This document shows positions 5,498 to 57,550 of a DNA stretch of 62,000 nt, piece after piece (the stretch's first letter is position 1; each line of letters starts with the position of its first letter). The position numbers were made by a program, and so were the translations under genes. Source of the stretch: Chiloscyllium plagiosum (Eukaryota); the NCBI RefSeq assembly GCF_004010195.1, contig NC_057754.1, positions 8,740,566 to 8,802,565 of the forward strand. Reading direction: 5' to 3'. The notes under the pieces were generated by a model. The model was not told the origin of the DNA. It saw nothing but the letters and a program-made list of their open reading frames with translations, and did not search any database.

Positions 5498-5537
5498 CCA
5501 GATGTTTCATTACCTGGCTAGGTAACATCATCAGTGG
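5498..5537 (-). ncRNA. Minimal hammerhead ribozyme, mutated copy (family B)
   Basis: Minus: cca CTGATGA T GTTACC tagcca GGTAAT GAAACATC tgg; ACGT palindrome changed to ACAT. Confidence 0.7.
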
Positions 5538-5883
5538 CGACCTCCAAGTGAAGCGAAGCTGTTTTCTCCTGCATTCTATTTATATCTTTCTCCTGGATGG
5601 GGTTCCTGGGGTCTGTGGTGATGTCATTTCCTGTTCGTTTTCTGAGGGGTTGATAGATGGCATCTCGATCTAGGCATTTGTTTATGGCGTTGTGGTTGGA
5701 GTGCCAGGCCTCTAGGAATTCTCTGGCATGTCTTTGCTTAGCCTGTCCCAGGATAGATGTGTTGTCCCAGTTGAAATGGTGGGGTTTTTATCCATGTGTA
5801 GGGCTACGAGGGAGAGAGGATTCCTAGTAGCACACACTCAAATAAAACACTCTCAAACAAAAACTAACAAACTTAAAAGATCC

Positions 5884-6147
5884 NNNNNNNNNNNNNNNNN
5901 NNNNNNNNNNNNNNNNNNNNNNNNNNNNNNNNNNNNNNNNNNNNNNNNNNNNNNNNNNNNNNNNNNNNNNNNNNNNNNNNNNNNNNNNNNNNNNNNNNNN
6001 NNNNNNNNNNNNNNNNNNNNNNNNNNNNNNNNNNNNNNNNNNNNNNNNNNNNNNNNNNNNNNNNNNNNNNNNNNNNNNNNNNNNNNNNNNNNNNNNNNNN
6101 NNNNNNNNNNNNNNNNNNNNNNNNNNNNNNNNNNNNNNNNNNNNNNN
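5884..6147. other. Assembly gap (264 N)
   Basis: Run of N. Confidence 1.
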
Positions 6148-6710
6148 AAGAGGTGACTTGATAGAGGTGTTGTCCCAGTCGAAATGGTGTTTTTTTTAAC
6201 CATGTGTAGGGCTATGAGGGAGAGAGGATTCCTAGTAGCACACACTCAAACAAAACACTCTCAAACAAAAACTAACAAACTTAAAAGACCCAGTACAACC
6301 CATGGACAAAACCAACGTCATCTACAAAATTCCATGCAAGGACTACCACAAACACTACGTAGGACAAACACGAAGAAAGTTAGCCATCAGGATACACGAA
6401 CACCAGCTAGCCACAAAAAGACACGACCCTCTCTCCCTCGTAGCTCTACACACGGATGAAAAAAAACACCATTTCGACTGGGACAACACATCTATCCTGG
6501 GACAGGCTAAGCAAAGACATGCCAGAGAATTCCTAGAGGCCTGGCACTCCAACCACAACGCCATAAACAAACGCATAGATCTAGATGCCATCTTTCAACC
6601 CCTCAGAAAACAAACAGGAAATGACATCACCACACATCCCAGGAACCCCATCCAGGACAAACATATAAATAGAAAGCAGGAGGCAACAGCTTCGCTTCAC
6701 TTGGAGGTCG

Positions 6711-6750
6711 CCACTGATGATGTTACCGAGCCAGGTAATGAAACGTCTGG
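6711..6750 (+). ncRNA. Minimal type-I hammerhead ribozyme (family B), core intact
   Basis: cca CTGATGA T GTTACC gagcca GGTAAT GAAACGTC tgg: helix I CCA/TGG, 6-bp helix II, ACGT palindromic helix III, GUC site after 6747. Confidence 0.85.
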
Positions 6751-8754
6751 ATATCAAACCTACAGCTCACCGAGCAAACCTACACCCTAAACCTCAACCT
6801 GAGCTACAAATCTTCGCAAACCTTGCATGAAACTCTCTGTCATTTCTCCATTCAACTTTCCAACTGATCCGAATCAATCTCCCTCACTCTCTCCATCGAT
6901 TTGTGTGTGGTCTGAAAAATTCAGTAATCAGACCAGCTACATTTTCATCTCAATCATTTACATCAAAAACAACAGAGGCCCTCAGCACTGATCCTTGTGG
7001 AACACCACTGAGCACAGACCTCCTCTTTGTCTCTTGTGTCCAAGCCAAGGTTGTATCCATTTTGCCAACTTACCATGAATCCAATGCAACTTAATCTTCT
7101 GGGCCAGCCTACCATGAGAGACCTTAGTAAGGTTTATGTAGACAACATCCACTGCTCTACCCTCATCAATCGTCTTAATCACTTCCTCAAAAGAACTCCA
7201 TCAAGTTTGTGAGATAAGATCTCCCCTGCATAAAACCATGCCTATTAAGTCCAATAATTTCCCTACCACTGATGCAAGGGTTAATAGCCTTTCCTGGATT
7301 ATCCAAGTTTCCCTTCTTAAACAAAGGAACAACATTGGCTCTTCTCTAAACTTCTGGAACATCACCTGCAGCTAAACAGGATACAACGATCTCTGTCAAG
7401 GCCTCAGAAAACCCGTCCCTTGCCTCCTTCAGCATCCTGGGGTTGATCCCATCAAGCCCTGGGGACTTAGCTATCCTTAATGTTTTTCAAGCCACCCAAT
7501 ACCACCCTCTTCTTAATATTGACATGCCCCAGATTATCAACATATCCCTCCCAAATCTTACTGTCCTCCATGTTCTTCTCCTTGGTGAATACCAATGTCC
7601 AATACAGATTAAGGACCTCACCCTCTTCCTCTGGCTCCATATATAAATCCCTCCTTTGTCCTAGAGTCAACCTGACCTTTCCCTGGTTATCCTCTTGGTC
7701 CTAACATATGTCCAAAATGCCTTGGGATTCTTCTTAATCCGACTTGCTAAGGACCTTTCATGGTCCTGCCTGGCTGTCTTAACTTCTTCATTAAGTTATT
7801 TTCTGCTTCCTTTATATTCTTCAAATGCCTTGTACGCTTTCAGTTTCTTAAACCCTACATATGCTTCCTTTCCCTTTTTGGCTAAACTTCCAATATCTCT
7901 TGTCATCCATGGTTCCTGAATCTTGCCATCCCTATCTTTCATCCTCACAGGAACATGCTGGTCCTGAATTCTGATCAACTGGCCTTTAAAAGATTCCGAA
8001 ATGTCAGAGGTGGATTTACCCTCAAACAGCCACCCAACAATCTAATTTTCCGGTTCCTGCCTGAAGCTGTTGGAATTAACTTGCCTCAGTTTCGCACCTT
8101 CACCCAAGAACCAGTCTTATCCTTATCCATAACCATCTTTAAGGTAACAGAATTCTGATCACTGATCTGAAAATATGCTCCCACTGAAACTTTGATCAGC
8201 CGTGCTCAGGCTCATTCCCCAAAACAAGCTCTAACACCCATTCCCTCGTTGGAGTACTTACATACTGGTTCAACAAACCTTCCTGGATGCACCAGCAAAC
8301 TCTGCCCCATCTAAAAGCCTGGTACTAAGGGAGTCGCAATCAATGTTAAGATCATTGACTACAAAAATCCCTGTTGTTTTAACATCTTTCCCTGCACTGT
8401 TTATGTATCTATTCCTCTACCTCTGTGGGCTATTGGCAGGCCAACAGTATAACCCCATCATAGTGACTGCACTTTGTTTATTCCTGAATTCTACCCATAT
8501 GGCCTCATTGGATGTGGCCTCCAAGCTGTGGCATTCTCCTCAGTCAGTAACGCAATTCCTCCACCCATTTTACATCCTTCTCTAGCTTGGTTGAAACCTC
8601 TAAAACCTGGAATGTTAAGCTGCTGAGTGCTGCGCTTCTCTCAACCCAGTTTCTGTAATGGCTATTGCATTGTGAACTCATGTACTAATCCAGACTCAGC
8701 TATTTTACCTGTTACACTCCATACATCAAAGTAAATTAGGAGACAGCAATGGCC

Positions 8755-10899: not shown

Positions 10900-12334
10900 T
10901 TCAGTCCGGTTTGCAATTGACACTAGAATCCAATCTCTGCTGTTGTGTGTGAATTTGCTGGTGCCTTAAGGGGTTATTTGACTGAGTGGATCCTTGCCCA
11001 CACACGAAACAGGTGATCGGCCTCTCCCCTGTACGAACAGGTCAGTGAGTCAACAGAGTGCTTTCGCTTTTAAAGCTCTTCTAACAGTCAGAACATCTGA
11101 AAGGTCTCTCATCAGTGTGAACAAGTTGGTGTGTCAGGGGTTGGCATGACTGAGTGAATCCCTTGCTGCGCACAGAGCAGGTGAATGGCCTCTGTGAGTG
11201 CATTGACGTGTCATTATATCCCTTCTGCTTTTAAAGCTGTTCTTGCAGTCAGAACATCGAGAAGGTCTCTGATCAGAGTGTACATGCTGGTGAGTCCGGA
11301 GACTTAGAGTCCTAGAGATGTAGAGCACGGAAACAGACCCTTCGGTCCAACTCATCCACGCCGACCAGATATCCCAACCCACTCTAGTCCCACCTGCCAG
11401 CACCTGGCCCATATCCCTCCCAACCCTTCCTATGCATATACCCATCCAAATGCCTCTTAAATGTAGCAACTGTACCAGCCTCCACAACTACCTCTGGCAG
11501 TTCATTCCATACACGTACCACCCACTGCGTGAAAAATTTGCCCCTTAGGTCTCTGTTATATCTTTCCTCTCTCACTCTAAACCTATGCCCTCTACTTCCG
11601 GACTCCCCCATCCCAGAGAAAAGACTTTGTCTATTTATCCTATCCATGTCCCTCATGATTTTATAAACCTCTATAAGGTCACCCCTCAGTCTCCGACGCT
11701 CCAGGGAAAACAGCCCTAGCTTATTCAACCTCTCCCTCTAGCTCAAATTCTCCAAACCTGGCAACATCATTGATAAAGCATTACATCCCTTCCCACACTC
11801 AGGGCAAGTGAATGGCCTCTCCCCAGTGTGAGCTCCCTGGTGTGTGCAGAGGCTTGATAACTGAGTGAACCCCTTCCCACATGTGGAGCAACTGAATGGC
11901 CTCTCCCCAGTGTGAATGCGTCGATGAGCTTCCAGTTCAGATGGGTAATTGAACCCCTTCCTATAGTCCCCACATTTCCAAGGTTTGTCCATGGTGCTAG
12001 TATCCATGTGCCTCTCCAAGTTAGGTAAAGCCTCAATCACACAAAGATCACGTGCAATTCCTCTCGCTGTCAATCGTGCAATAGTTTCAGATCGCGTAAC
12101 TTGTTAAAGCTCTTTTCACAGTCAGTGCACAGGAACACAGACTCTGGAGTGTGTGTCACGTGCTTTTCCAGTTACAGAATTGAAGATTTTTTTTGTCACA
12201 GATAAACACAAATATTTCTCCTTCCTTATTCAAATGCCATGGATATTCAGGTCCTGATGATTCGAGTGACTATCAGAACTTGAGGTGAAGTTTATTTTGT
12301 GTTTCCCACCGACAAATCCAACATTCTGAATGCC
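10900..12334 (-). pseudogene. C2H2 zinc-finger terminal exon, disrupted (ZNF-A)
   Basis: Acceptor CTCCTTTTACAG/G at 12335; fingers [36 protein letters not shown]...; CR1 insertion at 11306-11769; frameshift and stops in downstream fingers. Confidence 0.88.
11306..11769 (-). mobile_element. 5'-truncated CR1 inserted inside a zinc finger
   Basis: ORF 11384-11728 is the CR1 C-terminus; flanked by TT at 11304-11305 and 11770-11771. Confidence 0.95.
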
Positions 12335-12472
12335 CTGTAAAAGGAGATTAAATTAAAATACTTAGAATAGATAGCAAACAGGCCATCAATATATCCACTC
12401 TTGTTTTATATTTCCCATTCCAATTAACTCATCTATCTCATTTTTCCAATCCTATTTCTCACATGTAAAACT

Positions 12473-12867: not shown

Positions 12868-13049
12868 AGGTTGAAAAGGGTGGCGCTGGAAAAGCACAGC
12901 AGGTCAGGCAGCTTCCGAGGAATGATGAAGGGGTTATGCTTGAAACGTTGACCCTCCTGCTCCTCGGATGCTGCCTTAGCTGCTTTGCTTTTCCAGCAAC
13001 ACCTTTATCAACCCTGCCTCTCCAGCGTCTGCAGTCCTCACTTTCTCCT
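12868..13049 (+). mobile_element. Penelope family A mini-element (inverted arm, hammerhead remnant, tail)
   Basis: GCTGGAAAAGCACAGC...inverted against GCTTTGCTTTTCCAGC; TGATGAAGGGGTTATGCTTGAAACGTT at 12923-12949. Confidence 0.85.
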
Positions 13050-15105: not shown

Positions 15106-16350
15106 TTAGAACATAGAACAATACAGTGCAGAACAGGCCCTTCGGCCCTCGATGTTGCACCGACCTGTGAACTAATCTAAGCCCATCATCATCCATGTGG
15201 TTATCCAAGGATTGTTTAAATGCCCCTAATGTGGCTGAGTTAACTACTTTGGTAGGCAGAGCATTCCACGCCCTTAACACTCTTTGAATAAACCTGCCTC
15301 TGACATCTGTTTTAAATCTATCGCCCCTCAATTTGTAGCTATGCCGCCTCGTACAAGCTGATGTCATCATCCGAGGAAAAAGACTTTCACTGTCTATCTG
15401 ATCTAATCATCTGATCATCTTATATGCCTCAGTCAAATCCCCTCTTAGTCTTCTTCTTTCCAATGAGAACAGATGCAAGTCTCTCAGCCTTTCCTCATAA
15501 GACCTTCCCTCCAGACCAGGCAACATCCTGGTAAATCTTCTCTGCACCTTTTCCAGTGCTTCCACATTCTTCCTGTAATGGGGTGACCAGAACTGTACAC
15601 AATATTTCAAGTGCGGCCGCACTAGCATTTTGTACAGTTGCAGCATGACATTCCAGCTCTGGAACTCCAGCAATAAAACCTAACACACTGTATGCCTTCT
15701 TAACAGCACTATCAACCTGGGTGGCAACTTTCAGGGATCTATGTAAATGAACTCCAAGATCCCTCTGCACATCCACATTATCAAGAATCTTTCCATTGAC
15801 CCAGTATTTTGCCTTCCTGTTATTCTTCCCAAAGTGCATCACCTCACATTTAGCTGCATTGAACTCCATTTGCCACCTCTCAGCCCAATTCTGCAGTTTA
15901 TCCAAGTCCACCTGCAACCTGTAACATTCTTCCAAACTGTCCACTACTCCACCAACTTTAGTGTCATCTGCAAACTTACTAACCCATCCACCTATGCCAG
16001 CATCCAAGTCATTTATAGAAATGACAAACAGCAGTGGTGCAAAAACAGGCACACCACTAGTAACCAGACTCCAGGCTGAATATTTTCCATCAACCACCAC
16101 TCGCTGCCTTCTCACAGAGATCCAGTTTCTAATCCAAACTGCTAAATCACCCTCAATCCCATGCCTCTGCATTTTCTCCAATAGCCTACCATGTGCAACC
16201 TTATCAAAGGCTTTACTGAAGTCCATGCGCACCACATCAACTGCCCTACCCTCATCCATATGCTTGATCACCTTCTCAAAAAACTCAATGAGATTTGTGA
16301 GACATGACCTGCCCTTGACGAAACCATGTTGACTATCACCAATCAAATTT
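15106..16350 (-). mobile_element. CR1 LINE RT to 3' tail
   Basis: ORF 15495-16346 [15 protein letters not shown]...SKFADDTK; AGAACAT tail repeat. Confidence 0.94.
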
Positions 16351-16380
16351 ATTCGTCTGACTAGAAAGCACAGGGTGGAA

Positions 16381-16849
16381 CATTACACTTATCCTGAGGT
16401 AACTGTGCAGGCATGATGCACAGCAGCCTTGGCAGGGGGAGGCAGTGCCCCCCTGACGCTGCGGTGAAGGTGTACAGGAAGGTGGTATTCTTGCCTGTCG
16501 ACCCTCTGCAGGTCGTCGTTAAAAGGTTATTTTATCGAACATCCCACCCCTTTGTGCCATCTAAGCTCCACCTCCCCCAGTGCTGGGAGATGAGGTCAGG
16601 CGTGATGCTGCCTCAGACACACTTACTCCTTCTGGCGACAGCCAGGCCCTAGCAGGATGTAGGGTTCGAGCTCTGGTCAGGTGGAGGGGTGGGGAACCGC
16701 TGAAGGAAATGCCAAGTCTCCGTGGGGCCACAGTTGGCACCATTGGCCCTGCCCTCACACCTTCGCCACAGCGTCAGGGGGGCACTGCCTCCCCCTGCCA
16801 AGGCTGCTGTGCATCATGCCTGCACGGTTATCTCAGGATAAGAGTAACG
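16381..16849. repeat. 93-bp inverted repeat (arms 16381-16473 and 16757-16849) in an unassigned GC-rich segment
   Basis: Manual alignment gives 6 mismatches in 93 nt; 283-bp spacer. Confidence 0.9.
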
Positions 16850-18655: not shown

Positions 18656-18660
18656 AAGAA

Positions 18661-19744: not shown

Positions 19745-20026
19745 TTGAACCCAGGAGCATACCCACGCAGACCTGCCCTATCCCTGCATTTTTCATGGCT
19801 AACCCACCTAGCCTGCACATCCTGGCTACTATGGGCAATTTAGCATGGCCAATCCACCTAAACTGCACATCTTTGGACTGTGGGAGGAAACCAGAGCACC
19901 CAGAGGAAGTGCACACAGACACGGGGAGAACATGAAAACTCCACACAGTCACCCGAGAATGGAAGTAAACCCAGGTCTCCAGTGCTGTGAGGCAGCAGTG
20001 CTCACCACTGAGCCACCATGTGGTCC
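19745..20026 (-). mobile_element. HE1/V-SINE
   Basis: Reverse complement of the HE1 head and V-domain. Confidence 0.88.
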
Positions 20027-20044
20027 ATTTTGGGTTTTTTTTAA

Positions 20045-20172
20045 GGCCGACACAGTGGCTCAGTGGTTAGCATTGCTGCCTCATGTCACTAGGAGCCCAA
20101 GTTCAAATCCAGCCTCGGGTGACTGGCTGTGTGGAGTTTGCACATTCTCCTCATGTCTGCGTGGGTTTCTTC
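20045..20172 (+). mobile_element. HE1/V-SINE 5' half, head-to-head with the previous copy
   Basis: GTGGCTCAGTGGTTAGCATTGCTGCCTCA...GGAGTTTGCACATTCTCC. Confidence 0.88.
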
Positions 20173-21064: not shown

Positions 21065-21250
21065 CGGCTGGGGCTGAAATAAAATCAGCAGGTCTGGCAG
21101 CAGCCAGAACTAGTTCTGAAAAAGGGTCACGAGATATGAACTATTAACTCTCTTTCTTGCTCTCTGCAAACCTGCTGTATTTCACCGGCTATTTAACGTT
21201 TTTGTTTGGATCGGATCTCCAGCATCTGCAGCATCTGCAGTTCTTCGTTT
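21065..21250 (+). mobile_element. Old Penelope-type terminal repeat (family D) with decayed hammerhead
   Basis: Inverted arm followed by TTCTGAAAAAGGGTCAC...TTAACTCT...CTCCAGCATCTGCAG; related to 1990-2100, 19505-19610, 28137-28270 and 46750-46978. Confidence 0.6.
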
Positions 21251-21304: not shown

Positions 21305-22272
21305 TTACTCGTGACCTCGCTGGTGTCTCAGCAGGTCAGATGACTGAGTGAATCCCTTCCCACACTAGTGACCGGCCTCTCCCCTGTGTGGGCCCGCTGG
21401 TGCACACTGAGTTGAGACGATCATCTGAACCCAGCTCCACGGTGACAGCAGCTGAACGGTTTCTTCTGAGCATGGGTCATCAAGTCCCCAGAACTTCTGT
21501 AGCACCCCCCCACACTGCAGACATTTAAAGGGCCTCTCAGTGTGCATCCTGTTGCTGTTTCAACAGGGCGAATGACTGAGTGAATCCCTTCCCACACAAG
21601 GAACAAGTGAACAGACTCACCCCAGTGTGAACCCAATAGTGGCTCAACAGGATGACTGACTGAATCCCTGCCCACAGTCGGAGCAGGTGAACAGTATCTC
21701 TCCGGTGCGACTCCACCGCTGCGCAGTGAGTTGAGAGGACTGCCCGAAGGCAGTCCCACAGTGGGAGCACTGGAATGGCCTCTCATCAGTGTGGACACCT
21801 CTGCAGGACATCAGCACCCTGGTACCTTTGAAGCACTTCCCGCAGTCCGAGCAAGTAAAAGCTTGCTTCTCCGTGTGGACTCTCTCATGTCCCAGCTGGT
21901 GGGATAACTGACTGAACCCTTTCCCATACTTGGAAAAGGCAAACAGCTCCTCCTCGGTGTGACTGCGCCAATGCCCTTCCAAGTCAGATGGATACCCTCT
22001 TCCCGCAGTTCAGCCGCTTCTCCGGGGTGTGACAGCAAGGCCAGGTGAATGCTTGGAGGCTGTTTGTCCACACACAGAACACGTGTACGCTCTCTACTCA
22101 CTGTGAACTGTACTTTCTCCTTCCATCCTCAACAAGGGTCTGTTTCCATGCTGTACATCTCTATGACTCTATATCCAATGATATTTAAGTCATGATAAAT
22201 TGGGTGTCTGTCAGATCCTGACGTGGAGTTTGATCTCAGCTTCCAGATTGCAAGTCCACCCCTTCTACCACC
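21305..22272 (-). pseudogene. C2H2 zinc-finger terminal exon, multiply frameshifted (ZNF-B)
   Basis: Fingers spread over several frames ([44 protein letters not shown]) with lost Cys/His; exon start homologous to ZNF-A/C but acceptor AG missing. Confidence 0.88.
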
Positions 22273-22320: not shown

Positions 22321-25290
22321 GAACATAGAACAGCGCAGAACAGGCCCATCAGCCCTCGATGTTGCGCTGACGTGTGGAACCAATCTGAAGCCAATCTAAC
22401 CTACACTATTCCATGATCATCCATATGTTTATCCAATGGCCATTTAAATGCCCTTAAAGTTAGCAAGTCGACTACTGTTGCAGGCAGTGTGTTCCACGCC
22501 CCTACTACTCTCTGAGTAAAGTACCTCTGACATTTGTCCTATATCGATCATCACGCGATTTAAAGCTATGTCCCTCATGCTAGCCATCACTATCTGAGGA
22601 AAAAGGCTCTCACTGTCCATCCAATCTAACCCTCTTATTATCTTATATGTCTCAATTAAGTCACCTCTCAACTTTCTTCTCTCTAACAAAAATGGCCTCA
22701 AGTCCCTCAGCCTTTCCTCGTAAGACCTTCCCTCCATACCAGGCAACATCCTAGTAAAACTCCTTTGAACCCTTTCCAAAGCTTCCACATCCTTCCAAGA
22801 ATGCGGTGACCAGAACGCACGCAATACTCCAAGTGCAGCCGCACCAAAATTTTGTACAGCTGCAGCATGACCTTATGGTTCCAAAACTCGATCCCTCCAT
22901 TAATAAAAGCTAACACTTCATATGCCTTCTTAACAACTCTATCAACCTGGGTGGCAACTTTGAGGGACCTATGGAGCTGGGCACCAAGATCTCTCTGCTC
23001 AGCTCATCTACACTACCAAGAATCTTACCATTCACCCAGTAATCTGCATTCCTGTTACTCCTTCCCAAAGTGAATCACCTCACACTTTTCTGCATTAAAC
23101 ACCATTTGCCACCTCTCACCCCAGCTCTGCAGCTTATCTACATCCCTCTATAACCCACAATATCCTTCGGCCCTGTCCACTACTGTACCAACCTTAGTGT
23201 TGTCCTCAAACTTACTAACCCATCCTTGTATGCCCTCATCCAAGTCATTTATAAAAATGACAAACAGCAGTGGCCCCAAAACAGATCCTTGTGGTACACC
23301 ACTAGTAACTGAACTCCAGGATGAACATTTCCCAACAACCACCACCCTCTGTCTTCTTTCAGCTAGCCAGTTTCCGATCCAGACTGCGAAATCACCCTCA
23401 ATCCCATGCCTCTGTATTTTGTGCAGTAGCCTACCATGGGGAACCTTATCAAATGCCTTACTGAAATCCATATACACCACATCAACAGCTTTACCCTCAT
23501 CCACCTGTTTGATCACTTTCTCAAAGAACTCAGTAAGGTTTGTGAGGCACGACCTACCCTTCACAAAAGCGTGCTGACTATCCCGAATCAACTTATTCCT
23601 ATCGAGATGATTATAACTCCTATCTCTTATAACCTTTTCTAACACCTTATCCACAACTGAAGTAAGGTTCATTGGTCTATAACTTCCAGGGTCGTTTCTA
23701 CTCCCCTTCTTGAGCAAGGGAACATTTGCCATCCTCCAGTATTCTGGCACTATTCCTGTAGACAATGACAACACAAAAATCAAAGCCAAAGGCTTGGCAA
23801 TCTCCTCGCTGGCTTCCCAGAGAATCCTAGGGTAAATCCCATCCGGCCCAGGGGATTTATCTATTTCCACACTTTCCAGAATTTCTAACACCTCCTCCTT
23901 TTGAACCTCAATCGCATTTAGTTTAGTAGCCTGTTTCTCAGTATTCTCCTCAACAACAGTCTTTTTCCAGTGTGAATACTGACAAAAAATATTCATTTAG
24001 CACTTCCCTATTTCCTCTGACTCCACGCACAACTTCCCACTACCATCCTTGATTGGCCCTAATCTTGCTCTAATCATTCTTTTATCCCTTATGTACCTAT
24101 AGAAAGCTTTAGGGTTTTCCCTGATCCTATCCACCAACAACTTCTCATGTCCCCTCCTCACTCGTCTTAGCTGTCTCTTTAGATCTTTCCTGACTACCTG
24201 GTAACTCTCAATCACCCTAACTGAGCCTTCACATGTCATCCTAACATAAGCCTTCCTCTTGACAAGATATTCAACTTCCTTCATAAACTACGGCTCCCTC
24301 GCTCAACCACTTCCTCCCTGCCTGACAGGTACATACTTCTCAAGGACACACAGTAGCTGCTCCTTGAATATGCTCCACATTTCTATTGTGCCCATCCCTT
24401 GCAGTTTCCTTCCCCATCCTATGCACCTTAAATCTTGTCTAATCGCATCGTAATTGACTTTTCCCCAGCTGTAGCTCTTGCCCTCCAGTGTATACCTATC
24501 CCTTTCCATCACTGAAGTAAACATAACTGAATTGTGGTCACTATCTCCAAAGAACTCACCTACCTGCAAATCTAACACCTGGACGGGTTCACTACCCAGT
24601 ACCAAATCCAATCTGGCTCGCCCCTTGTTGGCCTTTCTACATACTGTGTCAGAAAACCCTCCTGCACACAATGGAAAAAAAAACTGACCCATCTAAAGTA
24701 TTTGAACTATAGTTTTAGATTAGATTAGATTCCCTACAGTGTGGAAACAGGCCCTTCGGCCCAACCAGTTCACACCGACCCTCCGAAGAGTAACCCACCT
24801 AGACCCATTCCCCTCTGACTAATGCACCTTGCACTATGGGGCAATTTAGCATGGCCAATTCACCTAATCTGCACGTCTTTGGACTGTGGGAGGAAACCGG
24901 AGCACACAGAGGAAACCCACGCAGACACAGGGAGAATGTGCAAACTCCACACAGACAGTCGCCCGAGGCTGGAATTGAACCTGGGACCCTGGTCCCAGTC
25001 AATACTTAGGAAGTTGAAGCCCCCCATAACAAATACCCTGTTACTCTCGCTCCTATCCAGAATCATCTTTGCTATTCTTTCCTCTAAATCTCTGGAACTA
25101 TTCGGAGGCCTATAGAAAACTCCCGACAGGGTGACCTCTCCTTTCCTGTTTCTAATCTCAGCCCATACTACCTCAGTTGATGAGTCCTCAAACGTCCTTT
25201 CTGCCACTATATTACTGTCCTTGACTAACAATGCCATACCCCTGCCCCCCCACCTCTTTTATCATCTTCTTTGTTCTTATTGAAACCCAG
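22321..25290 (-). mobile_element. Long CR1 ORF2 (endonuclease part to tail) with nested HE1
   Basis: [62 protein letters not shown] tail. Confidence 0.95.
24713..24991 (-). mobile_element. HE1/V-SINE (5'-truncated) within CR1
   Basis: TAGAT tail repeats and HE1 body; splits the CR1 endonuclease frame. Confidence 0.92.
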
Positions 25291-26871: not shown

Positions 26872-26972
26872 AGGCATTCCTGAAGAAGGACTTATGCCCG
26901 AAACGTCGATTCTCCTGCTCCTTGGATGCTGCCTGACCTGTTGCGCTTTTCCAGCAACACATTTTTCAGTTT
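26872..26972 (+). mobile_element. Penelope family A ~100-bp hammerhead mini-insertion
   Basis: Flanked by CTGTTTAAGCAA (26860-26871) and CTGTTCAAAGCAA (26973-26985); empty-site copy at 26059-26117. Confidence 0.88.
26876..26911 (+). ncRNA. Minimal hammerhead ribozyme (family A)
   Basis: attc CTGAAGA A GGAC ttat GCCC GAAACGTC gatt; core intact, one helix II mismatch. Confidence 0.78.
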
Positions 26973-28444
26973 CTGTTCAAAGCAACAGCAAAACATTTCA
27001 CCCCATTTCCCTGTTATTGGAAAGATGTTGTACAACTTGAAAGGCTTCAGAAAAGATTTACAAGGATGTTGCCAGAGTTGGAGGATTTGAGCGACAGAGA
27101 AAGGCTTAACAGAATGTGGCTACTTTCCCTGGAGCATCCAAGGATGAGGTGATCTTATAGAAGTTTATAAAATCATGAGGAGCATGTACAGTGTGAATAG
27201 TCAAGGTCTTTTTTACAGGGGAGGGGAGTCCAAAACTACACAGCATGGGTTTAAGGTGAGAGGGGAAAGATTTAAAAGGGACCTGAGGGGCAACGTTTTC
27301 ATGCAGAGGGTGGTGCTTGTATGGAATCAGATTCCAGAGGAGGTGGTGGAGGCAGGTACAATTACAACATTTAAAAGGCATCTGCATAGGTACATGAATA
27401 GAATGCTGGCAAATGGGACTAGATTAACATAGACTATCTGGTCGGCGTGGCCAAGTTGGACCGAAGGATCTGTTTCTGTGCTGTATCTCTCAATGATTTT
27501 ACTCTAAAGATCGATTCAAAATTTTTCTTTTCTGAGTGATTTGGACATATATTATTGTTCTGTTACTACAGGGTGAAATTGCTTATCTAACAGCATTGGG
27601 AGAGCGCCTTCACTACACAGACTGCAGCAATTTAACAAACTCCACCTTCTCCACAGGCAGCCTGGGACCAGCAATTCTTGTTGGTCAGGTTGGTGACACT
27701 CAATGCCAGAGGATAAATTTTTAGAAATCATACAGGTAAAACTCCCAAAAGCACACTCTTTCACATTTGACGGACAGAAAATGTAGCAAATTGATCTCCC
27801 CTGGAATGCAACTTTCTTTGACATTCTACAGCAGGAACTGCTGGGGGCAACTGGTCTCCAAAATTCTCAGGAACAAACGCAGCAGTTTATCTGCTATCTC
27901 CATTCCAGCTCAGAGTGATGCAACAAAGGATTACAAAAGAGTATTGGATAAGCCTCTGCAGAGGCTGGGCTACGAATGATAAGGAGGAGAACAGAAGTAG
28001 TTCATTTGCTCTCGCTGAGAGTGGCAACAACACACTTGGCCAAATACTCTCCGTTCAGATGAGAATTACCCAATGTTTCTACGCCTCACACCATGGACAA
28101 AGCTTTTCAACCATTGTGATACAAACTGACTTTTAATTCTGAAAAAGGCGTATCGGTCTCAAGATGTTAACTCTGTGTTTCTCTCCACAGATGCTGCCAG
28201 ACGTGCTGAGTTTCTCCAGCACTTTGTTCTTATTTCAGATTTCCAGTATCCACAACACTGCTTTTACATGATTCTAAGTTAATCCATCTGTCTTTCTGGA
28301 CTCAGTTAATACAAGTAATAAAACAAAAACAAAAAAAAATGCTGGAAGTAGAATTTGAAATGAAAAGAGCAAACATTGGAAACACCCCAGAAAGCAAATC
28401 TTCCTTGACCTGCTCCCACTTCCCACTGTCTGCTCCAGGAATTA

Positions 28445-28769: not shown

Positions 28770-29792
28770 CACGATTCGGAGATGCTGGTGTTGGACTGGG
28801 GTGTACAAAGTTAACACCAAGTTATAGTCCAACAGGTTTAATTGGAAGCACACTAGCTTTCGGAGCATCGCTCCTTCATCAGGTGATAGTGGAGGGCTCA
28901 ATCCTAACACACAGAATTTACAGCAAAAATTTACAGTGTGATGTAACTGAAATTATACATTGAAAAATTGTCTGTTAAGCCTTTCATCTGTTGAATACAG
29001 TGATAGTTTCACTTCTTTCATGTGTAAATCACAAAACCTTTTTTTAAAAAGTTGCATTCTCAAATTTGCTGTTAACAATGGTGATAGCTACATAATATGT
29101 TGAAGGTGTTGGCCCCCTGTGTTCTGTCTATGCCATGATGTTTAGATTGATTCTAATCTAAAAAGTGAGATAACGGAGTTTTACATGAATTCATGCAGCT
29201 TTTGAGCAAAGTACAATGTAACCCTGCAAGTACAAATTCACCCCACAAAATATATGTGTGCATGTGGGTCTTTGTGTGTGTGTGTCTGTCTGGGTTGGGG
29301 GTTGTGAGTGTGAGAAAGTATGTATGTGAGTGTAGAGTGTCTTAAGTCTGTGAGGGGGTGCATTTGAGAGTGTGGGTGCCTGTGTGTGTGCATAGTGTAA
29401 TGGTGATCACCTGTAATGTGACATGAACCCAAGGTCCCGGTTGAGGCCCTCCCTATGGGTACCGAACTTAGCTATCAGCCTCTTCTCGGCCACTTTTCGC
29501 TGCTGCCTGTCCCGAATTCCGCCTTGGAGGATGGTCACCCGAAGGTCCGAGGTCGAATGTCCTGGACCACTGAAGTGTTCCCCAACTGGGAGGGAACACT
29601 CCTGTCTGTTGATTGTTGTGTGGTGCCCATTCATCCATTGTCGTAGCCTTTGCTCGGTTTCCCCAATGTACCATGCCTCAGTGCATCCTTGCCTGCAACG
29701 TATAAGATAGACAACGTTGGCTGAGTCACATGAGTACCCTGCCATGTACAAGGTGGGAGGTGTCCCCACACGTAATGGAGGCAGGTCCTGAT
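28770..29792 (-). mobile_element. Penelope-like element (family C), 5'-truncated
   Basis: ORF 29407-29823 NVVYLIRCRQGCTEAWYIGETEQRLRQWMNGH...PVGEHF...GLN; terminal repeat shared with 56512-56640. Confidence 0.93.
28851..28885 (-). ncRNA. Minimal type-I hammerhead ribozyme (family C), core intact
   Basis: Minus: cac CTGATGA A GGAGC gat GCTCC GAAAGCTA gtg; helix I CAC/GTG, perfect 5-bp helix II, AGCT palindrome, CUA site. Confidence 0.83.
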
Positions 29793-30855: not shown

Positions 30856-33800
30856 TAGTGAGATATGATTTCCCACACACGAAGCCATGCTGATTATCCC
30901 TAATCAGTCCTTGCCTTTCCAAATACATGTAAATCCTGTCCCTCAAGATTCCCCCCAACCACTTGCCTATATCGGGCTCACCAGTCTAAAGTTCCCTGGC
31001 TTGTCCTTACCACCTTTTTAAATTAGTGGCACCACGTTAGCCAACCTCCAGTCTTCCAGCACCTCACCTGTGACTATCGCTGATACAAATACCTTAGCAA
31101 CTACTTCCCTAGCTTCCCAAAGAGTTTTAGGGTAGACCTGATCAGGTCCTGGGGATTTATCCACCTATATGCATTTCATGCAATCCAGCACCTCCTCCTC
31201 TGTAACATGGACATTTTTCAAGATGTCACCATCTATTTCCCCACATTCTATATCTTCCATAGCCTTCTCCACAGTTAACCCTAATGCAAAATACTCGTTT
31301 AGTATCTCCCCCATCTCCAGCGGTTCCACACACAAGCTGCCTTGCTGATCTTTGAGGGGCCCTATTCTCTCCCAAGTTACCCTTTTGTCCTTAGTGAATT
31401 CATAAAATCCCTTGGGATTCTCATTATTTGCCAAAGCTATCTCATGTCTGCTTTTTGCCCTCCTGATAAGTTGCCTTTATACTCTTCCAAGGATTGACTC
31501 AATCTCTGCTGTCTTGACCTGACATATGCTGCCTTCTTTTTCTTGAGCAAACCTCAATTTCTCTTGACATCCAGTGTTCCCTACATCCACCAGTCTTGCC
31601 TTTCACCCTAAGAGGAACGTACTGTCTCTGAACTTTTGTTATGTTTTAAGGCTTCCCATTTTCCAGCTGTTCCCTTATCTGCAAACATCCGCCCCCCCCC
31701 CCCCCCCCCACCATCAACTTTTGCACGTGCTCACCGAATATCGTCAAAAATGGCCTCTTTCCAATTTAGAACTTTAACTTTGAGATCTGGTCTATCCTTT
31801 TCCATCATTCTTTTAAAACTAATAGAATTATGGTTGCTTGCCCCAAAGTGCTCCTTACACCTCTGTCACCTGCCCTGCCTTATTTCCCAAGAGGAGGTCA
31901 AGTTTTGTACCTTCTCTAGTAGGCACATCCACATACTGAAGCAGAAACTTTTCTTGTACACACTTAATAAATTCCTCTCCAACCAAACCCTTAACACCAT
32001 GGCAGGCCCAGTCCGTGTTTGGAAAATTAAAATCCCCGACCATAACCATACTATTTATTCGGACAGTTAACTAGGATCTCCTTACAAATGCGTTTCACAA
32101 TTTCCCGCTGACTGCTAGGGGATCTATAGTACAAGGTTGAGAGTGTGGTGCTGGAAAAGCACAGCCGATCAGGCAGCATCCCAAGGAGGAGGAGAATTGA
32201 CGTTTCGGGCATAAGCCCTTCATTAGGAATGAGGCTTGTGGGCCGGAGGCGTCTCAGAGATAAATGGGAGGGGAGTGAGGTTGAGGGGGAAGGTAGCTAA
32301 GAAAGCAATAGATTAGATTTGATTCCCTGCAGTGCAGAAATAGGCCCTTGAGCCCATCAAGTCCACACTGACCCTCTGAAGAGTAACCTACCCAGACACA
32401 TTCCCCTACTCATGCACCTATCACTATGGGCAATTTAGCATGGCCAATTCACCTAAGATCGATGAAGGTGAGGGAGAAGGTGATAGGTCAGAGAGGAGGG
32501 GGGAGCGGATAGATGGGAAAGGTGATGGACAGGTCAGGACAGCAATGCCGAGTTGGAGGTTTGAGACTGGGACAATGTGGAGGGAGGGGAAATGAGGAAA
32601 CTGTTGAAATCCATACTGATCCCTTGTGGTTGCAAGGTCCCAAGGTGGAATATAAGGCGTTCTTTCTCCAAGCATCAGGTGGTAAGTGTTTGGCGATAGA
32701 GGAGGCCTAGGACCTGCATATCCTTGGTGGATTGGGAGGGGAGGTTGAAGTGTTCAGCCACTGGGCAGTGGGGTTGGTTGGTGCGGGTGTCCCAGAGATG
32801 TTCTCTGAAACGATCCGCAAGTAGGCGACCAATGTAGAGGAGACCACATCAGGTGCAACTGATACAGTAGATAACATTAGTGGAGGTACAGGCAAATTTC
32901 TGTTGGATGTGGAAGGATCCTGTGGGGCCTTAGACAGACGTGAGGGGAGTGGTGTGGGTGCAGGTTTTGCACTTCCTGAGGTGGCAGGGGAAGGTGCTGG
33001 GATTGGGTTGTGGGCTGGTGGGGAGGTTGGGAGTGTGGACCTGACAAGGGAGTGGTCTCTCCAGAACGCTGATAGGGGTAGGGAGGGAAAAATATATCTA
33101 GAGGTGCGGTCCGTTTGTAGGTGACGGAAGATGATGTGATGTACGCAGAGGTTGGTGGGGTGGAAGGTGAGGACCAGGGGGTTTCTGTTCTTATGTTGGG
33201 AGGGCTGGGGTTCAGGGGCAGTGGTGTGCGAAGTGGAGGAGATGGGCTGGAGGGCATGTTGAGAATGCAATTTAATTTATCAGTCTTACCTCGTTCTCTG
33301 TTTTGTTCCTCCCTGCCCTTACTGTTTGACTTGCTCCTTTTCCCAACTGTACCAGTCTTAGATTGATCACTTTCCTCACTATCTCCCTGGGTCCACCACC
33401 ACCACCAGTAGCCAACAACTTTACTAGTTTAATTTCACCCACGCAGCTCTAGCAAAATCTCCCTGCCAGTATATTAGTCCCCTTCCAATTCAGGTGTAAT
33501 CCGTCCTTCTTATACAGGTCTCTTCTAACCCAGAAGAGTCCAATGATCCAAAAATGTGAATACTTCTCCCATACACCAGCTCTTCAGCTATGCCTTCATC
33601 TGCTCTATCCTCCTATTCCTACCCTCAGTAGCTCATAGCACCGGGAGTAATTCAGATAATACCCTCGAGGACCTCCTTTTTAAATTCCTGCCTAACTTTT
33701 TATATTTTCCTTCCTATGTGTTTAGTTCCAATGTGTACAATGACCTCCTGCTGGTCCCGCTCCCCTTTGAGAATATTCTGCAACCTCTCAGAGATATCCT

Positions 33801-34260: not shown

Positions 34261-34261
34261 A

Positions 34262-39902: not shown

Positions 39903-40424
39903 TCAGCAGTTGGGATGATTGACTGAATCTCTTCCCACACTTGAAGCATGTGAATGATCACTCTCCAGTTTCTGCCTAGTGTGGATCCGCTGGTGTGTCG
40001 ACAGGCTGGATGACAGAGTGAACCCCTTCCCACACTCGGAGCAGGTGAACGGCCTCTCCCCGGTGTGGACTCGCCGGTGCACCAGCAGGTTGGAGGAATT
40101 AGTGAATCCATTTCCACAGTCAGGGCAGATGAATGGCCTCTCCCCGGTGTGGACTCGCTGGTGTCTCCGGAGGTGGGATGACTGAGTGAATCCCTTTCCG
40201 CACACGGAGCAGACGAATGGGGTCTCTCCAGTGTAACTGCGCCGGTGTGTTTCCAGCTCAGACGGGAATCGGAACCCCTTGCCACAGTCCCCGCACTTCC
40301 ATGGTTTCTCCCTTTTATGGCTCCATTTGTGCTTCGACAGCCCAGAGGCTTGGCTGAAACCCCGTCCACACACAGGACATATGTATGGTTTCTCTTCACT
40401 GTGAACAGCACATTTCCCCTCCAT
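39903..40424 (-). CDS. C2H2 zinc-finger protein (ZNF-C), 173 aa, five fingers (second has His to Tyr)
   Basis: Open frame with TGERPF linkers; first ATG of an exon beginning at 40496 (acceptor TTTCATAG/G); in-frame upstream stop; sixth finger out of frame. Confidence 0.72.
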
Positions 40425-40974
40425 GTGGTTATGATATATTGGATAATGCTCTCAGATCCTGAAGTTTCCAAAATGTGAATCCTCCCCTTCTACTTCCTAT
40501 GAAATTGTTATGAAACAGAAAAAAGCAAGAGTGAGGGACTCACAAAAGTTCAAAGACACATTTGGACATCAACCCTAACGTCTCAATGTAGTTCAGTGGC
40601 AAATGTTTCCTTATAACACTCCTGTGAAACAGCTTGGAATGATCTATTACACAAAAGGCACTATATGAATGCAAATTATTGTTAATTTGGACATATATTG
40701 CTCTTTCTTCTTCATCGCTGGGTGAATAACCTGTAACTCCTCACCCAACAGAATTGTAAGAGCACCTTCATCACATAGACTGCACTAGTTCTAAAAGACC
40801 AAACATCATCTTCTCCATGTACAACTGTGAATGGACAACACCATATTAGCTGGTCTTGTTAGTGAAAGAGCAGGAGAGTTGGACGATCTGAACTGCAGAG
40901 AGTCAGCACAGGCATAACGAGCGAAATAGCATCTTTTTGCAGTGTGATTAGTTAACTATTCTCTGACTGCTTTT

Positions 40975-46835: not shown

Positions 46836-46933
46836 TGGCTTCACTTGGAGGTCGCCACTGATGATGCTACCTAGCCAGGTAACGAAATGTCTGGATATCA
46901 AATCTACAGCTCAGCGAGCAAACCTACACACCT
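46836..46933 (+). mobile_element. Penelope family B 98-bp hammerhead mini-insertion, 9-bp TSD
   Basis: Matches 6694-6790; AGAAAACAG at 46827-46835 and 46934-46942; hammerhead 46855-46894 with ACGT changed to ATGT. Confidence 0.9.
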
Positions 46934-47146
46934 AGAAAACAGAGTTTCCAGTCCAGTGACTCTTCTTCAGATGCTGAGTATTGTAAAGTTGGGGAGAATA
47001 ATTGTAGATTGGGAGACAGGAATTTAGAATTTGGTGGGGGGTGGGGTCTTTAAAAGATGATGTTTTTTCAGTGCTCATAGTTAAAATGGATGTTTTTGAG
47101 CATCTTTAAAGTTTGGAGGAACCTAGAGCACACAAACTGAAACATT

Positions 47147-49230: not shown

Positions 49231-49329
49231 TTCAGCCTGGGTTCAAATGTGTTGCTGGAAAAGCGCAGCAGGTCAGGCTGCATCCAAGGGGCAGGAGAAT
49301 CGATATTTCGGGCATAAGCCCTTCTTCAG
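49231..49329 (-). mobile_element. Penelope family A ~100-bp hammerhead mini-insertion, 11-bp TSD
   Basis: GAAGGCCAGGG at 49220-49230 and 49330-49340. Confidence 0.87.
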
Positions 49330-49332
49330 GAA
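49298..49332 (-). ncRNA. Minimal hammerhead ribozyme (family A), ATAT variant
   Basis: Minus: ttc CTGAAGA A GGGC ttat GCCC GAAATATC gatt. Confidence 0.72.
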
Positions 49333-49652
49333 GGCCAGGGCCAAGGAAATCAAATAATAAAATTAGGTGATACATCAGACTGAAATCAGTCAGGGAAGAG
49401 ACTAACATGATAACTGACTGGTACATTTTTCTGGGAATGATTATACTCCACTGTTGGGAAATACAAGTGGGTAATTTTTTTAAAAAAGCTCATTTCTGGA
49501 ATGTGGGCATTATTGCCCATCCCTAGTTGCCCTTGAGAAGGTGATAGAGAGCTGCCACTTGAACTGCTACAGTCCACCTGCTGTGGGTTGACCCACAATG
49601 CCATTAGGGAGAGAATTCCAGGATTTTGACCAAGTGACAGTGGCTTGGAGGG

Positions 49653-52990: not shown

Positions 52991-53144
52991 CTTCAATGGA
53001 GGTAACAGCTGCATCCTGTCCTTGCCCTCATACAGGTCAACTCTTAGCCTTCTCTGCTCTAAAGAATAAAACCCATGCTTACGCAGCCTCTCTTCATCAC
53101 CAAACTCCTGGTGAATCTCCTCTGCACTCCCTCCAGTACAACCA

Positions 53145-55270: not shown

Positions 55271-55282
55271 ATTTTGATGGCA

Positions 55283-55595
55283 AGATAGATTCACCACAGT
55301 GTGGAAACAGGTGCTTCAGCCCAACAAATCCACACCAACCCCCCCAAAGAGTAACCCATCCAGACCAATCCCCTACTTACCCACAACCAATACATCCCTG
55401 AACCTATACATTTAGCATGGCCAATTCACCTACCCTGTACACCTTTGGATTGTGGGAGAAAGCCAAAGCACCTGAAGGAACCCCACGCAGACAACGTGCA
55501 AACTCCACACAGAGAGTCGCCTGAGGCTGGAATCGAACCTGGATCCCTGGTACTGTGAGGTAGTAGTGCTGACCACTGAGCCACCGTGCCACCCC
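55283..55595 (-). mobile_element. HE1/V-SINE
   Basis: Reverse complement of full HE1. Confidence 0.9.
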
Positions 55596-55596
55596 A

Positions 55597-56503
55597 GCAG
55601 AGTTATACGCTGAAGCCGGAGTTCTTCTGCTTTGCTAGTTCCTTTTCTTGGGCTTTCTTTTCTCCACCTCTTTGCTGCAGGTTCTCTTATCCTGATCCCC
55701 CAGCCCCCACAACTTTTAATTTCTTAAACTTTCCAGGAGAGAATGGAGAATGGAGGAGGTGAGCCCAAGACCAGGCTGACGCAGGAGATGAATCAAAGGT
55801 CATGCCGGCCCGGGGGGGCAAGTCGCAGGCCGGAGCCCAGGCCGGGAGGCAATCAAAGCCCCAGCTGGACAGGAAGATGAGTCCTGGAGCTGAGTCACAG
55901 GCCGCAGCCCAGGCTGGGACGCGGTCAAAGCCCCGGCCGACCTGGAAGACGAGTTCTGGAGGTGAGTCATGGGCCAGAGCCCAGGCCGGGAGGCAGTCAA
56001 AGCCCCAGCCGGACAGGAGGACGAGTCCTGGAAGCGGGTCACGGGCTGGAGCCAGGCCGGGAGGCAGTGCCAAGCCAAAGCTGCATGGGAGATGAGTTTT
56101 GGAGCCAAGTCCTGGTGGAGAAGCTGTAAGCTGGAACCCAGCGCGGGAGGCAGGCCAGGCTGGACTGGGAGACGATGCCTGGTGGTGGGTCCCAAGCTGG
56201 AGGCCAGCGTGAGGAGGCAGCGAGTCATCAAGTTCTGAAGCCCAACAGGCGAGGACTCAGTGGAAAGGACTGCAATTTGAGTACTTTTTAAAGATAATTT
56301 TATTCTTATTCTGGACTCGGAGTAATTCATAGTACTTTTTGAACTTTGTATTCCTATGTTCGACTGTTTTTTTCACTCTTTCAATTCTGCAACAAAGTAC
56401 CTGTACCTAGGTACCCCGTACCTAAGATGGCACCAAAGCAGCAACATTACAAATTTTTTACCGCACTCATTCAAATGCAAGTGACAATAAAGGCTATTCT
56501 ATT
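55597..56503 (+). mobile_element. Non-autonomous retroposon-like element with GC-rich core and LINE-type tail
   Basis: Ends GTGACAATAAAGGCTATTCTATT (resembles Rex/Babar/L2-type 3' ends); no RT coding remnant. Confidence 0.55.
55820..56075. repeat. 72-bp minisatellite, about 3.5 copies
   Basis: (C)CCAGGC(C/T)GGGA recurs at 55836, 55908, 55980 and 56052. Confidence 0.93.
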
Positions 56504-56511
56504 TTAAACTC

Positions 56512-56640
56512 ATGATGTGGAGGTGCCAGTGTTGCACTGGGGTGGACAAAGTTAAAACTCTCACAACACCATGTTATAGTCCAACAGATTTATTTGGAAG
56601 CACTAGCTTTCAGAGCGCTGCTCCTTCATCAGGTAACTAA
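56512..56640 (-). mobile_element. Penelope family C terminal fragment with hammerhead (56601-56634)
   Basis: Matches 28770-28885; minus CTGATGA A GGAGC agc GCTCT GAAAGCTA gtg. Confidence 0.87.
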
Positions 56641-57373
56641 CCTCCAGTCTGAAAAACAGCCCTCCACCATCACCCTGTCTTCTACCTTCGAGCCAGTTCT
56701 GTATCCAAATGGCTAGTTCTCCCTATATTCCATGAGATCTAACCTTGCTAACCAGTCGACCATGAGGAACCTTTGTCAAATGCCTGACTGAAGTTCATAC
56801 AGATCAAGTCCTCAGCTCTGCCTTCATCAAAGCTCTTGGTTACTTCTTCAAAAAAGTCAATCAGGTTAGTGAGACATGATTTCTCACACACAGAGCCACG
56901 TTGACTATCCCTAGTCAGTCCTTGTCTTCGCAAATAAATGTACATCCTGTCGCTCAGGATTCTCTCCAACTTGCCCAACACTGATGTCAGGCTCACCGGT
57001 GTGTAGTTCCCTGGCTTTTCCTAACCACCTTGCTTAAATAGTGGTACCATGTTAGCCAACCTCCAGTCTTCCGGCACCTCACCTGTGACTATCGATGATA
57101 CAAATGTCTCAGCAAGGGGCCCAGCAATCACTTCACTTGCTTCCCACAGAGTTCTAGGGTACACCTGATCAGGTCCTGGGGATTTATCCAACTTTATGCA
57201 TTTTTAAGACATCCAGCACCTCCTCCTCTGTAATATGAACATTTTTCAAGATGTCACCATCTATTTCCCCATATTCTATTTCTTCCATGTAGTAGATACT
57301 GTTACAAAATACTCATTTTAGTATCTCCCCCATCTCCTGCGGCTCCACACAAAGGCTGCCTTGCTGATCTTTA

Positions 57374-57550
57374 AGGCGGAAGTGAGGACTGCGGATGCTG
57401 AAAACCAGAATCTAGATTAGAGTGGTGCTGGAAAAGCACAGCATGTCAGGCAGCATCCGAGGAACAGGAAAATCGGCGTTTCGGGCAAAAGCCCTTCATC
57501 AGGAATGATGACCTGCCTGACCTGCTGTGCTTTTCCAACACCATTCTAAT
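57374..57550 (-). mobile_element. Penelope family A mini-element with inverted arm; hammerhead 57471-57506 (GUC changed to GCC)
   Basis: Minus attc CTGATGA A GGGC tttt GCCC GAAACGCC gatt; inverted arm 57516-57550. Confidence 0.88.

Follow-up and report, generated by a model that had tools for sequence, protein, structure and literature searches.

Probable minimal type-I hammerhead motifs of Penelope-like elements in the genome of Chiloscyllium plagiosum

Hammerhead motifs in the window

The DNA analyzed here, called the window throughout, is a stretch of 62,000 nucleotides from contig NC_057754.1 of the 3.56-Gb Chiloscyllium plagiosum assembly. It contains relics of three independent lineages of Penelope-like elements (PLEs) and thirteen sites that are, very probably, minimal type-I hammerhead ribozyme motifs (min-HHRs) of these elements (Table 1). 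A preliminary description of this DNA had assigned the motif to four families, A to D, and each of its coordinates was checked. The motif was present at all thirteen, on the strands described. In the intact layout, CTGANGA and a single additional base come after a 3-4-nt helix I 5' strand. They are followed by helix II in paired form, GAA, a palindrome of 4 nt (ACGT or AGCT), a base other than G (H17) and the complementary helix I 3' strand. The palindrome occupies positions 15.x-16.x in place of a helix III hairpin, and the family forms bear out the two sequences proposed for it, with ACGT in A, B and D and AGCT in C. Family B combines helix II GTTACC(T)/(A)GGTAA(C/T) with helix I CCA/TGG, family A combines GGGC/GCCC with ATTC/GATT including a U-U mismatch, and family C combines GGAGC/GCTCC with CAC/GTG. 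The undecayed form of family D, obtained from genome copies, has helix II GGGTC/GACCC, a T after the palindrome and helix I AGTT/AACT. Position H17 is C, C, A or U across the family forms. The helix II pairing proposed for families A, B and C held, and its length in B had to be revised to 7 bp (GTTACCT/AGGTAAT) in the family form, with 6 bp in copy 6714. A single unpaired base after position 9 was found in 107 of 108 core matches with at least four helix II pairs, where shuffling leads to an expectation of 11.65 matches.

Intact or nearly intact window cores start at 6714(+), 5534(-) and 46858(+) in family B, at 26880(+), 49329(-) and 57502(-) in family A, and at 28882(-) and 56632(-) in family C. 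The CUGANGA...GAA core with a non-G base at position 17 is present in the family forms of A to D and at nine of the thirteen window sites. Single-base core mutations are found at the remaining four, namely ATGATGA (A 12923), CTAATGA (A 32195) and, in D 21115 and D 28137, CTGAAAA together with a disrupted helix II. D 46945 lacks part of the GAAACGTT segment, and the decay ascribed to family D applies to all three of its window copies. CpG sites are the place of several departures from the family forms (ACGT to ACAT, ATGT or ATAT), and helix III of decayed copies reads ACAT, ATGT, ATAT or ACGC. Most of the thirteen window copies carry disabling substitutions and are regarded as dead. The families had been described as four with dissimilar flanks; however, the tails of A and D are homologous and share the segment GATGCTGCC.GAC.TGCTG...TTCCAGCA, so that three independent flank types remain.

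Excess over chance and covariation of the helices

A loose pattern (CTGANGA-N5-20-GAAA) matched the window 13 times, compared with a mean of 4.11 and a maximum of 10 in 100 shuffles. Nine of these matches were sites already described, while the other four (26383, 35182, 36191 and 61357) resemble the chance background. A strict descriptor, composed of helix I of at least 3 bp, a perfect helix II of at least 4 bp, the palindrome and H, matched three times (6714+, 28882- and 56632-), and neither 200 dinucleotide shuffles nor the reversed sequence gave a match. Fourteen copies of A, B and D, taken from the genome and the window, went into the covariance model R1; family C was left out of this model and of the counted alignment because MAFFT moved it by one column. 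R1 yielded 23 window matches at E≤10, twelve of which were sites already described (ten of them at E<0.05), and the remaining eleven, with E values of 1.4-9.8, lie elsewhere in the window. Site 28137 was absent from these 23 matches. Although the model contains no family C sequence, it recovered the C site at 28848-28888.

Covariation was analyzed in the alignment of these 14 representatives, which are mutually related and whose helix II was fixed by the patterns used to fetch them. Paired cells amounted to 88.3%, versus 63.7% in shuffles (a value of 88.3% was reached in 0 of 500) and 17.9-49.1% with partners slid, and the covariation score was 0.629 versus 0.211 in shuffles and at most 0.159 after sliding. 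Changes on both sides were detected in six of nine pairs, and pairs 10.2, 10.3 and 10.4 each occur with two to three Watson-Crick types. Pair 10.1-11.1 is G-C in 12 of the 14 representatives and G-U in two. Helix I lies outside every fetching pattern; 76.8% of its cells were paired and three of four pairs change on both sides, which supports the covariation previously claimed for this helix. Two A subfamilies replace the helix I U-U by A-U (ATTC/GAAT) or G-C (AGTC/GACT).

Exact-core patterns were matched in the whole genome by 126,899 copies of family A, 20,562 of C, 5,061 of B and 1,513 of the undecayed form of D, with no match to the reversed control pattern in any family. The total of 154,035 exact cores verifies in kind the very large and probably unannotated ribozyme population that had been extrapolated from the window. 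Since just 5 of the 13 sites in the window fit these patterns, the actual population is probably several-fold larger once decayed copies are counted. Nearly all listed copies of the commonest B subfamily (loop AGCC) carry G-U at 10.1-11.1, and a second B subfamily (loop AGTAG or AGTAA, core CTGAAGA) has often kept G-C. The wobble of family B was therefore probably present in the source element and not gained copy by copy.

It was considered whether repeat-rich DNA could have produced the motifs through chance agreement with a short, degenerate consensus. The four background-like matches to the loose pattern are of this kind, as the shuffle mean predicts. For the motif population as such, the probability of a chance origin is practically nil, and the shuffles, the reversed-pattern controls and the covariation of the helices rule it out.

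The Rfam hammerhead models presumably expect a closed helix III. None of the Rfam hammerhead families (types I, II and III, HH9 and HH10) matched the window at gathering thresholds or at E≤10, and standard annotation would consequently not report these motifs.

Linkage to Penelope-like element coding sequence

The PLE origin had initially been deduced from the motif alone. Coding evidence was found for families A, B, C and D: directly upstream of each family, in window or genome copies, lies PLE coding sequence consisting of a reverse transcriptase (RT) and, at the C terminus, a GIY-YIG endonuclease. In the window, the open reading frame (ORF) 6239-6787(+), whose product is termed P0001, is a decayed GIY-YIG endonuclease tail that runs up to a family B hammerhead. 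Its Pfam GIY-YIG match (E=0.016) is below the cut-off, and its relatives are 705-aa RT and GIY-YIG proteins of carpet-shark relatives. Using tblastn, the endonuclease of P0008 was located in the two arms of the family B inverted repeat and in five sampled genome loci (L002-L006), in each case directly upstream of the hammerhead; one of these loci (L006) has RT and then endonuclease ahead of the hammerhead. The endonuclease remnant of the window was recognized only by reading P0001 and by homology search. Pfam detected no GIY-YIG domain at E≤0.01 in 117 window ORFs of at least 90 aa, and its search of the whole genome for GIY-YIG returned one weak and unrelated locus (L001) and no PLE.

In family C, a frameshift-broken RT ORF (L008), in which ADKG-type and YVDD motifs were read by eye (RVT_1, E=0.0044), lies between two direct hammerheads with a spacing of 2,517 bp. 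One hammerhead precedes the start codon of this ORF by about 110 nt, and the other follows the end of the ORF at about 70 nt. For family A, locus L021 contains an endonuclease ORF with Cys-x4-Cys-x2-Cys ahead, which ends about 120 nt upstream of the hammerhead. This ORF was assigned because of its BLASTP match to the P0008 endonuclease (E=2e-5) and to two longer proteins that share the same precomputed RT-containing domain set. The Cys-x4-Cys-x2-Cys linker before the endonuclease was noted in this family. RT sequence was also found between two A hammerheads 2,245 bp apart (L033) and upstream of a further one (L005). For family D, an endonuclease-like stretch was found upstream in one of 20 sampled loci (L046; Pfam GIY-YIG, E=0.0092). 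RT identity between the lineages is approximately 25-33% in tblastn pieces, and the hammerhead core has nonetheless been kept. Family B is Penelope/Poseidon-like, C represents a second lineage, and A and D are related lineages. The explanation that accounts best for these observations is, with high probability, that the motifs are PLE min-HHRs located near the element 3' end within a pseudo-long terminal repeat (pseudo-LTR).

Matches to PLE endonuclease sequence were also observed in host-gene models. Predicted isoforms of named host genes from related sharks (P0004, P0006, P0011, P0012 and P0013) align with the endonuclease tail of the PLEs; the identity is 53-83%, and 31-67% of the query is covered. 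The genes include CUE domain-containing 2, MAP3K7, WW domain-binding protein 2-like and EYA3-like. These matches are probably PLE fragments that were taken into gene models as exons.

Features of the window

The coordinates of all hammerhead sites and associated PLE features are collected in Table 1.

Table 1. Hammerhead motifs and associated features of Penelope-like elements in the window
Feature	Position	Strand	Remarks
Family B hammerhead, best window copy	6708..6753	+	core from 6714; strict descriptor passed; R1 43 bits, E=8e-10
Family B predicted scissile bond	after C 6747	+	position H17 of core 6714
Family B hammerhead, inverted twin of 6708-6753	5495..5540	-	helix III ACAT; R1 E=3.2e-8
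Family B hammerhead, short copy	46852..46897	+	one helix II mismatch; helix III ATGT; R1 E=1.1e-7
Family B inverted repeat, right arm	6428..6789	+	3' part of a PLE copy, ending ~40 nt past the cut site
Family B inverted repeat, left arm	5459-5819	-	93.6% identical to right arm (self-BLAST)
GIY-YIG endonuclease remnant, B element	6302..6619	+	tblastn with P0008 aa 596-702: 66% identity, E=4.6e-42
Second GIY-YIG endonuclease remnant, B element	5629-5781	-	tblastn, 63% identity
Family A hammerhead	26874..26913	+	one helix II mismatch (GGAC/GCCC); copy starts at hammerhead; R1 E=1.8e-9
Family A hammerhead, solo unit	49296..49335	-	helix III ATAT; R1 E=4e-7
Target-site duplication, 11 bp, of the solo A unit 49296..49335			CCCTGGCCTTC; matched by 0 of 200 shuffles
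Family A hammerhead	57469..57508	-	helix III ACGC; inverted copy of own tail adjoins upstream; R1 44 bits, E=4.2e-10
Family A hammerhead, core CTAATGA	32193..32232	-	copy continues upstream; R1 E=3.8e-8
Family A hammerhead, decayed	12917..12955	+	core ATGATGA, helix II broken; inverted-tail type; R1 E=0.035
Family C hammerhead, intact	28848..28888	-	core from 28882; AGCT; strict descriptor passed; R1 E=0.046
Family C predicted scissile bond	after A 28854	-	position H17 of core 28882
Family C hammerhead	56598..56638	-	G-U in helix II; strict descriptor passed; copy starts at hammerhead; R1 E=1.4
ATTAAA signal of family C (28842-28837), with poly(A) addition at 28825 and 28822	28822..28842	-	RNA reads
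Family D hammerhead, decayed	46936..46977	-	R1 E=0.0061
Family D hammerhead, heavily decayed	21110..21151	+	R1 E=2.4; recognized mainly from the tail
Family D relic	28137..28222	+	tail GATGCTGCCAGAC... still recognizable; hammerhead not detected by R1

A run of 264 N at 5884-6147 is located exactly between the arms of the family B inverted repeat. PLE palindromes of this kind are described as hard to assemble (PMC8557442), and the run may also be a withheld stretch. Further retroelement fragments in the window were matches to RVT_1 at 23151-23996(-) (E=1.6e-25), 15498-16382(-) (1e-20), 3400-3849(+) (7.3e-13) and 35850-36446(-) (3.7e-10) and to endonuclease/exonuclease/phosphatase at 58280-58624(-) and 60330-60620(+). 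Judged by their domain matches, these six fragments are assigned to retroelements of the long interspersed nuclear element type and not to PLEs, and tblastn with PLE proteins gave no match to any of them. C2H2 zinc-finger ORFs are found at 39906-40451(-), 11741-12103(-) and 21647-22009(-), the first with five fingers (zf-C2H2, E=2.7e-34). A near-perfect 64-nt hairpin at 20004-20067 matched Rfam mir-3473 on both strands with 33.8 and 31.8 bits against a threshold of 71.8. This hairpin probably represents a short interspersed element (SINE) arranged as an inverted repeat.

Insertion anatomy and 5' ends of the copies

The published insertion habits of PLEs include strong 5' truncation as an ordinary feature as well as inverted 5'-truncated partners (PMC8557442). 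The copies analyzed here behave as published, with truncation, head-to-head pairs, optional tails and target-site duplications. Strong 5' truncation was observed among them, inverted 5'-truncated partners are common, and at the 3' ends a shorter and a longer tail alternate. Inspection by eye of the first 100 genome places each of B and C revealed 18 close pairs in the order minus then plus versus one in the order plus then minus. The sampled B and C loci were chosen as pairs, and their classes are biased to long copies. The tail-outward orientation of the head-to-head pairs would fit the activity of the protein of the Anolis carolinensis element PAc, which extends both DNA strands in vitro (PMC11167929); such extension of both target strands would explain the pairs.

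For 37 sampled exact-core A copies, script-based labels distinguished 21 copies extended upstream, 5 hairpins and 11 copies without upstream homology. Relabelling defined a hairpin by an upstream match of at least 40 nt to the inverted tail and moved L016 and L048, in which upstream family sequence was seen by eye, resulting in 14 hairpin, 14 extended and 9 solo copies. The corresponding numbers for 21 D copies were 5, 2 and 14. In the hairpin and solo classes, comprising 23 of the 37 A copies and 19 of the 21 D copies, 0-11 nt of the copy precede the core. Such 5' ends at the motif were observed in the L015-L054 sample and at window cores 26880, 49329, 57502 and 12923. The head-to-head palindromes of A and D are centred on the 5' edge of the hammerhead, with the hammerhead copy as the right arm. 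A strict exact-word search was applied to 12 A units (the 11 copies labelled solo by the script and window copy 26880) and found target-site duplications of 10-15 bp in six; for each of these, no more than one shuffle in 200 did as well. Among 14 D units, three have duplications (10-15 bp) that lie at most 5 nt from the core. The other six A units and most D units did not have a target-site duplication in this exact-word search.

Cleavage at H17 would not yield copies that start 0-11 nt upstream of the core. It is tentatively suggested, as a somewhat unlikely explanation, that the copied RNA has its 5' end at the 5' edge of helix I and that hammerhead plus tail (about 90-130 nt) form a complete mini-element, mobilized in trans, which would account for most of the more than 10^5 copies. 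Both target strands would then prime reverse transcription, and the cDNAs would meet at the 5' ends of their templates, giving head-to-head palindromes. In family C, poly(A) is added only about 30 nt past the scissile bond. Should transcripts start at helix I as well, a full-length transcript would have the hammerhead at both ends as a terminal redundancy, which is where a dimer-type ribozyme would find a partner in cis.

This proposal, in which most copies are short non-autonomous units that resemble retrozymes or SINEs and are copied from their own short RNA by PLE proteins, concerns the origin of the copies and not the identity of the motif. The sharp starts and the target-site duplications of solo A units favour it, as does the link between vertebrate non-LTR retrozymes and PLE pseudo-LTRs drawn in a 2026 preprint (10.64898/2026.07.22.740005). 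Like non-LTR retrozymes and schistosome Sm-alpha-type SINE-like elements, the units are short and non-coding, with a dimer-type type I hammerhead and kinship to pseudo-LTRs (PMC7229834, PMC6765202). However, they are not bounded by hammerhead cut sites, and extended copies grade into copies bearing RT and endonuclease, while strong 5' truncation would be expected of ordinary PLEs in any case. Retrozymes are described as tandem arrays that give circular RNAs (PMC7229834, 10.64898/2026.07.22.740005), whereas the units found here are mostly solo with duplications or head-to-head. Among the sampled loci, no tandem head-to-tail array was found except for one 121-bp pair (L044); a systematic genome-wide array search was not part of this analysis.

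Transcription of family C

Raw reads of a single-cell, poly(A) data set with the same species label (run X18) provided 5,787 reads at a likeness of at least 90%, which stem from the families genome-wide and not from the window locus alone. Read depth at the C copy differed between strands (520 vs 64). Loose poly(T) ends were present in 387 reads before 28822 and in 311 reads before 28825. They place poly(A) on the hammerhead-sense strand, 29-32 nt past the predicted cut, and poly(A) addition in family C occurs 12-17 nt after ATTAAA. The second C copy of the window has AATAAA at the matching place (~56580-56590, minus strand). At the A copy, read depth was similar for both strands (87 and 136). 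A further run, X19, had no reads on the window, and X3 and X1, which are contigs of uncertain kind, were excluded from the evidence. Family C RNA is thus transcribed and polyadenylated in the hammerhead sense. The reads did not pile up at the cut sites. As a 3' single-cell library cannot show such ends, their absence counts neither for nor against cleavage.

Self-cleavage and its possible mechanism

It is somewhat more likely than not that intact family forms self-cleave in vivo and, should they do so, there is a good probability that a second copy is needed. A single motif could not close helix III, as A15.1 and U16.1 would enclose just two bases; two copies would therefore pair through the 4-nt palindrome and exchange their 3-4-bp helix I strands to form a double hammerhead, a model that goes back to Forster 1988 as described in PMC6155905 and PMC4209133. 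The partners may be joined in cis, as the pair of pseudo-LTRs within a single longer-than-unit transcript, or may belong to separate RNA molecules. In this model each core would cut the other copy after H17, and such cleavage would trim PLE transcripts. The bonds predicted to be cut follow position 6747 in family B and position 28854 in family C.

Several observations weigh against motif identity or a working ribozyme. The pairing of helix II is partly ascertained through the patterns used for fetching, helix I comprises just 3-4 bp and holds the U-U mismatch in the main A subfamily, and the decayed ORFs score below the Pfam cut-off, with no match at E≤0.1 for the endonuclease ORF of L021. Minimum-energy RNAcofold dimers were not double hammerheads, although this plain model contains no tertiary or stacking effects. 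They formed extended duplexes or paired through another palindrome (UCGA across the cut site in A1), while helix I and helix II did form in monomers A3, A5 and D2. Other observations can be read as signs that, in these lineages, the motif serves PLE RNA chiefly as a structural signal, for example for recognition by RT or endonuclease or as an RNA-end element, and does not work as a self-cleaver. The in vitro cleavage of published min-HHRs is poor even in dimer form (PMC4209133). Catalytic mutants of the Anolis PLE left insertion in vitro unaffected, and the Anolis RNA-seq, as presented in the same article, had no reads ending at the cut site (PMC11167929). Copies of B1, the commonest subfamily of B, number in the thousands even though G-U takes the place of the conserved G10.1-C11.1. 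Many A and D insertions start exactly at the 5' edge of the motif, which suggests an RNA-end mark apart from the scissile bond. A mainly structural role is nevertheless considered unlikely. The residues kept across lineages with such low RT identity are the catalytic ones (CUGANGA, GAA and non-G 17), helix III remains palindromic, which serves catalysis in the dimer, and the PAc hammerhead was cleaved with the expected C3/G8 rescue pattern (PMC11167929).

Relation to known systems and significance

Motifs of this kind are already known as the min-HHRs of metazoan PLEs (Cervera and de la Peña 2014, PMC4209133). The motifs described here share with these the type I topology, the CUGANGA...GAA core, one unpaired base between 9 and 10.1, the G10.1-C11.1 pair, a short helix I and a 15.x-16.x palindrome without a helix III hairpin. 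Several consensus families per genome with compensatory changes were likewise reported in that study, as were mostly solo copies of truncated PLEs and some close pairs on opposite strands. Differences concern helix II, which has 4-5 bp in A, C and D and 7 bp in B versus typically 6-8 bp, and the copy number, with at least 154,035 exact cores compared with about 4,000 in coelacanth and 9,000 in Xenopus. No cartilaginous fish is listed in the available text of that study. The proposed dimer formation through a very short palindromic stem III also resembles that of the small PLE hammerhead variants of Lünse, Weinberg and Breaker 2017, as summarized in PMC6765202.

Among individual elements, Anolis PAc (Poseidon; Frangieh et al. 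2024, PMC11167929) is similar in its RT and GIY-YIG ORF, its pseudo-LTR, its optional tail and the position of a hammerhead near the ORF boundary. The PAc ORF starts inside the hammerhead, whereas the start codon of family C lies past it, and the endonuclease here ends ~70-120 nt before the hammerhead. Retrozymes were counted in one chondrichthyan in the 2026 preprint, where the copy number given for any genome does not exceed 14,255. In the top-ranked literature, Lünse 2017 and supplements set aside, no paper was found that describes hammerheads in cartilaginous fishes.

The motifs are invisible to Rfam-based annotation, yet they are among the largest ribozyme-motif populations that could be counted in one genome. 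This shark-type genome therefore offers a rich natural data set of the core and helix changes that PLE lineages tolerate. Of specialist interest are the number of copies, their sharp 5' ends at the hammerhead and the adjoining poly(A) site. A question of the PLE field is whether its hammerheads cleave in vivo and for what purpose, and the sharp 5' ends together with the nearby poly(A) site provide cheap leads for end-specific RNA sequencing.

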